Source of the DNA: Candidatus Poribacteria bacterium
GTDB lineage: Bacteria; Poribacteria; WGA-4E; GCA-2687025
DNA length: 64,000 bases
Assembly: GCA_963665845.2 (NCBI GenBank)
Contig: OY762492.1
Coordinates: 3,648,001 to 3,712,000 of the forward strand
Direction of reading: 5' to 3'
Part shown: positions 49,426 through 51,040 of the stretch, in pieces
Numbering within the stretch: the stretch's first letter is position 1
Layout of the letters: each line of letters opens with the position of its first letter
Position numbers and translations under genes: made by a program
The notes under the pieces: model-generated
Told to the model about the DNA's origin: nothing
Database searches by the model: none
What the model saw: only the letters and a program-made list of their open reading frames with translations

Positions 49426-49540
49426 GTATCTGTGTTCAAAGTCAATCATTTTGCGCTTTCCGTAGCGCCGAAAGTCGCCGCGGCGGATATTTTTCGGCAG
49501 TACCGAAGGAGCCGCCGCAGCGAGATTTCGGAAAGGGTTT

Positions 49541-50737
49541 TCATCTGCCTTGCGTCCTGTCGCTTGACTGCGGATCGGAAGACGCCGCCGCCGGCGCTTC
49601 TCCAGGCGCCGGCAGCGCCTCCCCGTCAGCCTCATCCAAAGACGCAGATGTTCCGGTCGGCGCCGCAACCGACGCATCGGAAGACCCCGACTCTTCCGAT
49701 GGCGCCGCAGCCGCTGTTTCATCCTGCTCATCAGAAGACCCCAACTCTTCCGATGGCGCCAAAGAACGCAACTCATCCAAGGGAACCCAAGGCGTTCCAC
49801 GCTTCAGAATCGCGTTCGCAAGAACCGCCAACTTCCGCATCACCGCCACAAGAGCCGCCTTCCCAGGCTTGCCGTTCTCCTTCAGACGCTCGTAAAACGG
49901 CTTCATGTCGGGGTTGAAACGAATCGCCGACATCGCCGACATATACAGAAGCGCCCGAACATCGCTCCGACCGCCCCAAATGCGGCGGCGACCAATCGAC
50001 TTCCCGCTCTCGCGCGCCCAAGGAGCCAAACCAAGCAGGGAACCGATCTCACGGCCGCTCCGATTGCCCAACTCCGGCACATGAAGAACCAGATACGCGG
50101 AAAGGAGATCGCCGAAGCCCGGAATGCTCTTCAACAGACGAAACCTCTTGTAAAGATCAGGCTTTTTCTTGATCAACGCCAGAGCTTCCCGCTCCGCCGC
50201 CTTGCGCTCCTCTTTCAGAGTGTCGCGGAGCTGTTCGGTCGCAGCCTCCGTCGGCTCGCCTTCCAGTAAATGCAGCCGATTGGTCCACTGAGTGATCGTT
50301 TTCACCAGTTGCATGCGTATCGTCATCCAGCGGCGAGCCTTTTTCACGACCGGATCGATCGGTTTCGTCGGTTCCAGATCGCGGCTCAGCCCATACAGCG
50401 CGAGCATCTTGGCGTCCAGCGCGTCGGTCTTGGCGCGGACGCTGTAGGAGCGGATGAAGTGATGGGGGTAGTTTGGATGACAGCGGCGGTAAGGGATCTC
50501 TGCTTCGGCGAGCAGCGACGCCAGTTTCCGCTCGTATCCGCCGGTCGGTTCAAAGACGACCATGTTGATGTCGGGGTAGGTCATCAGGAGGCGTTTGATG
50601 AACCGCTTGATGGCGCTCGCGGCGTTCTTGATGGTGGAGGTTTTCCCGCCGTTGATGGAGATTTCAAGCGTGTCTTTGGACATGTCGATTCCGGCGGCGA
50701 TTTTGTTGCTGTTTTCGTCGTGGCGTGGTATGTTCAT
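49541..50737 (-). CDS. IS110 family transposase/recombinase
   Basis: GIDMSK (D), FEPTGGYE (E), KTDALDA (DD), SIPGFG, GLAP..RESGKS (Ser), [34 protein letters not shown]. Confidence 0.96.
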
Positions 50738-50754
50738 TTTCGTTCTCCTTTCGG

Positions 50755-50953
50755 GAGAAAAGGACAAGAAGGACCGGCCTCCTTACTTGTATTCTGTAAC
50801 AAGAACACTGTATCTGTGCGGAGCCTCCGGTCTTTCTTGTCTTCTTTGCGCGGCTCTCGATACTCCCGCACGGCGCCGCTGCGAAGCAACGCGCCCAAGA
50901 CGGTCTGGAGTCTCACCGCGCTACCCCTTAAGTATGCGCTAACTCGAGGGGCA
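50755..50953 (-). ncRNA. Predicted IS110 bridge RNA
   Basis: 5' hairpin plus two large stem-internal-loop domains (50848-50921 and 50763-50841). Loop segments match the target repeat and the element-end junction. Transcript ends are approximate. Confidence 0.8.
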
Positions 50954-51040
50954 AGATCATCATACAAATGACGGCATGGATCGGCCGGCTGTCGCGCAAA
51001 TGAATGTCATCGCTTGTAGGCTGGCGACTCCAGTTAGCCT

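Follow-up and report, generated by a model that had tools for sequence, protein, structure and literature searches.

We describe here an IS110 element that occupies one fixed position of a palindromic genomic repeat and whose two ends, once joined, bring a -35 and a -10 hexamer to a distance of 17 bp. Very probably this arrangement forms a promoter on a circular form of the element, where it would drive a predicted bridge RNA together with the recombinase, and these are predicted to insert the element into another copy of the repeat. The element lies in a stretch of 64,000 nt from a Candidatus Poribacteria genome (the window); its parts are listed below.

49425-50966, minus strand: IS110 element in its mechanistic register, from left-end position 10 to the right-end core T; 10 copies share these ends
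49404-49424, minus strand: right part of the split target repeat, NTS/dRS3 type (CGTC-1), with the right target CCCGC at 49420-49424 (NTS consensus from PMC11893778)
50967-50975, minus strand: left target (7 nt) and target core TT, together the left part of the split repeat; all 775 empty repeats have T at position 8
49425-49433, minus strand: left donor arm (7 nt) and donor core CT, identical to the left donor guide over 8 nt
50962-50966, minus strand: right donor arm TGTAT at the left end, reverse complement of the right donor guide, with a compensatory change in copy d2
49440-49445, minus strand: -35 box TTGACT, located in the right end and unchanged in all 9 full-length copies
50959-50964, minus strand: -10 box TATGAT, overlapping the right donor arm
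49541-50737, minus strand: IS110 recombinase of 398 aa (PF01548 and PF02371), with its ribosome site at 50745-50751
50762-50952, minus strand: predicted bridge RNA, start predicted near 50952, both ends putative
about 50923-50952, minus strand: predicted 5' stem-loop of the bridge RNA
about 50849-50921, minus strand: predicted target-binding loop
about 50762-50842, minus strand: predicted donor-binding loop
50896-50904, minus strand: left target guide, with a U opposite target core base 8 and a mismatch or bulge at position 7
50859-50869, minus strand: right target guide (50863-50869) and handshake bases, 11/11 complementary to the integrated right junction 49420-49430
50810-50817, minus strand: left donor guide, 8 nt identical to donor arm and core
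50784-50792, minus strand: right donor guide (50786-50792) and handshake bases

The element, its target repeat and its predicted guide RNA

The host genome harbors seven full copies of this 1542-bp element, two diverged full-length copies and one truncated copy, and all of them share the same ends. All ten sit at the same base of a palindromic repeat, which is restored when the element is removed. A strict pattern finds 775 empty repeats in the genome against 0.007 expected. The repeat matches the NTS consensus (PMC11893778) and hence falls into the dRS3/CGTC-1 class (PMC3733652). In one contig of sequencing run X3, 49425 is connected to a diverged version of the flank that lies beyond 50967; this contig thus represents an empty site at a related locus, with the boundaries as predicted. 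Sites that start with ACC, like the left guide, make up 5 of the 10 occupied but 91 of the 775 empty repeats (binomial p 0.003, with sites that are partly non-independent because flanks lie within one longer repeat). Insertion is therefore site-specific and without target duplication, as in the IS110 family. Of 16 inverted pairs, none connects the two ends as terminal or sub-terminal inverted repeats would; judged by its sequence, the element belongs to the IS110 group and not to IS1111.

The original prediction had set the boundaries at 49426-50967, with a single T shared by both ends, and had taken the promoter as independent support for them. The boundaries are correct to within this T, and the ends are common to the ten copies. 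However, the copies, the empty repeats and the RNA guides support them far more strongly than the promoter does. One T is indeed ambiguous between 49426-50967 and 49425-50966, but what really meets at the junction is a donor core CT and a target core TT. We assign the T to the right end (49425-50966) because the crossover falls after base 9.

Several other loci are related to the element or its repeat. Within 49250-49425, a second repeat-like palindrome is paired in inverted orientation with the target repeat, from which it is 133 nt distant. Divergent from the element, the plus strand carries a promoter-like site (TTGACA-17-TATGCT, 51041-51069 of the window) before two tandem WD40-repeat genes (51093-54825). 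Copy d1 (C1:1533504-1531953) is a chimera whose first 100 nt are of the main type and whose remainder is d2-like. Copy p1 (C1:469928-470372, L020) is a mini-element of 445 bp with a whole bridge RNA, and its circle would be without a -35 box. It terminates at an internal site that resembles the donor at 6 of 9 bases and is fused exactly to the right half of the repeat, and may be either an aberrant recombinase product or a microhomology deletion. At C1:2298863-2299180 (L108) a 105-aa GIY-YIG gene has NTS-type repeats on both sides, which by arrangement resembles ssnA of PMC11893778.

The recombinase carries the IS110-family domain (E 5.4e-18), with D18, E63, D105 and D108 invariant in 26 sequences, and a C-terminal PF02371 domain (E 5.8e-17), with the catalytic S244 invariant in 26 aligned sequences. 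Its relatives include two proteins of solved structure, ISCro4 and IS621. The last part of the gene (49541-49790) encodes a low-complexity, acidic tail some 80 aa long, within which four imperfect repeats of 41 nt are found. Such a tail is also present in close homologs near 400 aa and absent from most relatives of 310-320 aa.

Upstream of the recombinase gene, the left end folds with z = -3.92, and none of 200 shuffles folded as well. An alignment of 24 sequences supports a layout as in IS621, and 29 of its 41 consensus pairs show double changes. In the minimum-energy fold of the window's own sequence the guides are partly self-paired, and freeing them costs 11.5 kcal/mol. All four guides are complementary to target and donor, as is expected of an IS621-type element, and the left target guide matches the site in the window at positions 2-6 and 8, with mismatches at 1, 7 and 9. 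Guides and targets also covary. Of the possible matches in 30 distinct elements, 224 out of 270 and 132 out of 150 are realized, against 151.6 and 61.1 in shuffles, and 0 of 10000 shuffles reach either value, although related elements are not independent of each other. The donor loop consists of an 8-nt copy of the right end and a 7-nt complement of core plus left end, in other words, it reads the joined ends. In copy d2, left end and donor guide are altered together in a compensatory manner. This donor-loop match is better support for the joining of the ends than the promoter is. Elsewhere (C1:2788100-2788333) lies a diverged, orphan bridge RNA with no recombinase gene. In this relic, position 7 of the repeat is matched by the left target guide, and the right guide has stayed intact.

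A predicted promoter on the joined ends

It had been predicted that the minus strand reads TTGACT at 49440-49445 and TATGAT at 50959-50964, and that joining the ends places them 17 bp apart. Both hexamers are where they were said to be. Recomputing the junction gave the same 17-nt spacer, and the assembled promoter agrees with the sigma-70 consensus of our scanner at 10 of 12 positions. Random genomic joins gave a promoter of at least 10/12, with the -10 starting no more than 7 nt past the join, in 44 of 200000 trials. Hexamer pairs of the sigma-70 type peak in the host genome at spacer 17 (166, against 35-69 for the other spacers between 10 and 25), hence this promoter type is in use by the host. 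The joined ends score 10/12 in 8 of the 9 full-length copies and 9/12 in d2. The final 20 alignment columns are invariant in all nine, while 858 of 1568 columns overall vary or are gapped.

The further claim that the promoter exists only on joining holds for the copy in the window, where the integrated left flank reaches 7/12 and the right end facing outward 5/12. A scan of the minus strand from 49000 to 51200 found no promoter, and no internal one at 9/12. The claim fails for copy c3 (C1:3504015). Here, the host flank supplies TTGTCA 18 nt before the -10, so that a 10/12 promoter is present in the already integrated element. The reading frame of c3 is whole, and its hybrid promoter is partly host-made. 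A -35 of 5/6 would come from 9 of the 775 empty repeats.

Conservation in relatives was followed with an alignment-based scan that returned 80 loci of 37-43% protein identity. Their right ends were called from their own donor guide, without use of -35 or spacer, which was possible at 77 of the 80 (not at L052, L080 and L091). A -35 of at least 5/6 arises on joining at 72 of 77 loci, whereas the integrated flanks provide one in 0 of 76. The spacer is 17 nt in 64 cases and 18 nt in 13. When counted by distinct element, the -35 appears on joining in 30 of 32 clusters, one cluster being a mis-call. The -10 overlaps the donor arm and partly served to call the left ends, and its conservation is thus not independent evidence. 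The -35 is retained although it lies outside the guide-bound donor arm, and we therefore infer selection on the promoter.

Searches closer to the host returned less. A single-protein scan of genome contigs gave no match. Among 41 related genomes, four besides the host genome contain matches (26-36% identity), in which no shared ends were seen. The right-end 20-mer has three matches in metagenome contigs, all of them chance matches without a recombinase. At the C-terminus of P0012, a 56%-identical homolog reads through its right end, and the resulting peptide resembles the translated right end and repeat of the window element, which implies the same end and target elsewhere.

The reading as an IS110 circle-junction promoter that faces bridge RNA and recombinase fits every test that was run. 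IS492 is said to be one precedent for such a promoter. The parallel to IS621 that the original prediction drew is borne out (PMC11208160, PMC13626964) and extends to ISPpu10 (PMC12288879). Its use as evidence for a circular intermediate is only partly sound: the promoter does suggest a circle, but ISPpu9 circularises without such a promoter (PMC12288879). From its sequence, the junction promoter is one more well-supported example of the type already known from IS621 and ISPpu10.

Unlike cores in donor and target

In IS621, top strands are cut after base 9 and bottom strands between bases 5 and 6, on our reading of the numbering in PMC11208158. In this register the donor core is CT and the target core is TT in 10 of 10 copies, and base 8 is T in every one of the 775 empty repeats. 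The identical 2-base core of donor and target that characterizes IS621-type elements is thus absent. The relatives carry TT at the left junction in 51, CT in 21 and CC in 5 of 77 loci, with a CT donor throughout; their target core was read from the flanks, that of the host genome from its genome-wide empty repeats. The relatives with a CC core share no base at position 9, which fixes the crossover after this base. Base 8 of the left guide tracks base 8 of the target (T/T in 16, C/C in 13, other in 1 of 30 distinct elements), and in all 30 the right target guide carries a core complementary to CT. An AT-core register, as in published GTCATT-targeting elements, was considered and ruled out by the donor alignment and the CC-core relatives.

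The junctions also record which strand was written. Top-strand alleles, in which the left side shows the bases of the target and the right side those of the donor, are found at 56 of 56 relative loci with unlike cores, all with distinct flanks, and in all copies of the host genome. Even segregation of a 4-nt heteroduplex would give the opposite alleles in about half of the cases. The uniformity is explained by biased repair or by top-strand integration (10.1101/2025.10.25.684509). At one CT-core locus, L066, the position-6 junction bases seem to be swapped relative to its guides, as might result from a bottom-strand product or from entry into a donor-like site. We also considered the core mismatch as a forward ratchet in the window copy and rejected this idea, as the gain in the target loop is cancelled in the donor loop. 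There, the handshake makes 4 Watson-Crick pairs before and 4 after the exchange at positions 6-8, without a forward bias. In a quick tree of the relatives, from which L103 was left out, the CT group forms one branch (SH-aLRT 99), CC is nested within TT, and the window protein sits on a long, unplaced branch. The hosts of this clade are labelled Chloroflexota, Nitrospirota, Poribacteria, Binatota and Pseudomonadota.

Taken at face value, bridge recombination may need no shared core and may be written by the top strand alone, such that one CT donor enters TT, CT and CC targets while the left guide tracks the target and the right guide is preset to the donor. We regard the chances of this proposal as evenly balanced. 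A literature search found no paper on unlike cores in IS110 or bridge systems, though subscription papers, ISfinder and preprint supplements may describe them, and in the published core changes donor and target were altered jointly. If true, the proposal would free bridge editing from its rules on matching cores and on position 7. Current bridge-editor design uses matching cores and a non-matching position 7, and the clade does the reverse. It would also favour top-strand integration over Holliday resolution in cells. The junction alleles offer a natural test between Holliday resolution (PMC11208158) and the top-strand-only integration put forward in two preprints, including 10.1101/2025.10.25.684509.

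Proposed cycle, alternatives and comparison with known systems

Joining of the ends would likely switch on guide RNA and enzyme, by analogy with IS621. The steps proposed here are modelled on that element (PMC13626964): a weak initial expression, excision, a burst from the promoter once the circle exists, and silencing upon insertion. In the proposed cycle, weak priming expression, as deduced from IS621 and CazIS110, would come from read-through or be supplied in trans, possibly from c3. At each end, the complex would then cleave the top strand behind base 9, and it would join the two ends. If the first circle is single-stranded (10.64898/2026.08.31.748434), the promoter would work only after second-strand synthesis. 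From a start at about 50952, RNA and enzyme would then be produced in a burst. Within the repeat, GTCATT/CCCGC would be bound by the target loop, and joining of the top strand would occur after base 9, with the TT target core read by the U of the left target guide and the right target guide already carrying the complement of the donor CT. Insertion would part the -35 from the -10 and thereby silence the copy. For the window copy, read-through priming is doubtful because the upstream neighbour points away, and for the same reason its RNA and enzyme likely have to be supplied in trans. With its whole frame and its flank promoter, c3 is a candidate source.

Present activity is a different matter. 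The circle junction has 0 matches in the genome assembly, and no tail-to-head junction was seen in contigs of 8 out of 12 runs; contigs drop rare forms, so that this absence weighs neither way. The seven full copies are 89.0-95.4% identical and mosaic, and frames are whole in 4 and broken in 5 of the 9 full-length copies. This divergence and the broken frames count against present activity, although mosaicism and frameshifts could partly be products of the assembly. In RNA run X9, contigs cover parts of the element and are uninformative on start or strand. One RNA contig of this run joins an NTS-type repeat to the target-loop region 50839-50899 and is probably a chimera.

The same data could be read as those of a relic, in which the promoter is a genuine inheritance of a family that is decaying in this host and has ceased to circularise, the ends being kept only because the copies are not yet old. 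The lack of any pair of the seven mosaic copies above 95.4% identity, the five broken frames, the neutral handshake tally with the position-7 guide mismatch and the missing junction contig in 8 runs all fit this view. We nevertheless consider it improbable, if far from negligible, since the last 20 columns are invariant in nine of nine copies, four copies retain whole frames, related copies occur in several sequencing runs, and mosaicism and frameshifts possibly stem from assembly. A pure chance match is barely credible. Hexamers are indeed short, and the -10 shares bases with a site that is conserved for another reason, but the random joins rarely produced such a promoter (44/200000), and the relatives show it on joined ends and not on integrated ones (72/77 against 0/76).

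Two further alternatives accept the promoter or the strand bias and change the route. Circles might form while most expression is driven by a different promoter, either one made by the flank (as in c3) or an internal one of the ISPpu9 kind, the junction match being secondary. The 10/12 flank of c3 and the nine empty repeats with a 5/6 -35 are compatible with that, as are the ISPpu9 circles, which create no promoter (PMC12288879), and the weak transcription of integrated IS621 (PMC13626964). We think this quite unlikely, given that 72 of 77 relatives preserve the -35, at 17-18 nt, although it lies outside the guide-bound arm, that no internal minus-strand promoter reaches 9/12, and that 1 of 10 occupied against 9 of 775 empty sites is no enrichment. 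More unlikely still is direct top-strand transfer, mostly without a free circle, which has been proposed as a second route for CazIS110 (10.1101/2025.10.25.684509). All junctions carry top-strand alleles, with the possibly bottom-strand L066 excepted. These alleles, however, follow from the circle route too, and both a conserved promoter restricted to joined ends and a donor loop that matches the joined ends would be hard to maintain without a circle. We therefore keep the cycle through a circle with a junction promoter as the preferred reading.

The closest described systems are IS621 and ISCro4/IS622 (PMC11208160, PMC11208158, PMC13626964, 10.1101/2025.05.14.653916; PDB 8wt6 and 9t56), with which the recombinase has the RuvC-DEDD and Ser domains in common (E 6e-27 and 2e-28). 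Also IS621-like are the left-end bridge RNA with a 5' stem-loop and two loops, the sigma-70 promoter at the junction, the REP-type target and the cut after base 9. The donor agrees at 11 of 14 bases with an IS621-type donor in the supplement of Durrant 2024. In contrast to IS621, which has CT in both, donor and target cores differ here (CT and TT), the target is an NTS/CGTC-type repeat, and the recombinase has its acidic 80-aa tail. Position 7 is A in both target and donor, while the design rule for IS622 asks for matching cores and a non-matching position 7 (10.1101/2025.05.14.653916).

That IS110 elements target REP sequences has long been known (PMC1525189). ISPpu10 and ISPpu9 from Pseudomonas putida are REP-targeting IS110s that form circles (PMC12288879, 10.64898/2026.03.19.712850). 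The ISPpu10 circle creates a strong junction promoter and the ISPpu9 circle none. ISPpu9 yields truncated modules comparable to p1 and the orphan bridge relic described here. Both use a shared core (CT or AG), unlike the window element. The same repeat class is addressed by IS110s with GTCATTCC targets in the alignment of Durrant 2024 (supplement file 5), where the motif occurs 24 times. The donors of these targets (five looked up and two more) have an AT core that is shared with the target, and cross one base upstream. In Neisseria, dRS3 is a known integration target, and the Nf1 prophage uses a dRS3 subtype other than the one found here (PMC3898611, PMC11893778, PMC3733652). Unlike Nf1, the window element is a stand-alone IS, and it enters the repeat at the foot of the stem. 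CazIS110-1, which is likened here by mechanism only, would give the same junction alleles by top-strand copy-out and integration (10.1101/2025.10.25.684509). Thus, the element appears to be a member of the IS110 group that works like IS621 but without a matched core. The junction promoter is textbook for IS621-like elements, and the unlike core is what could matter.
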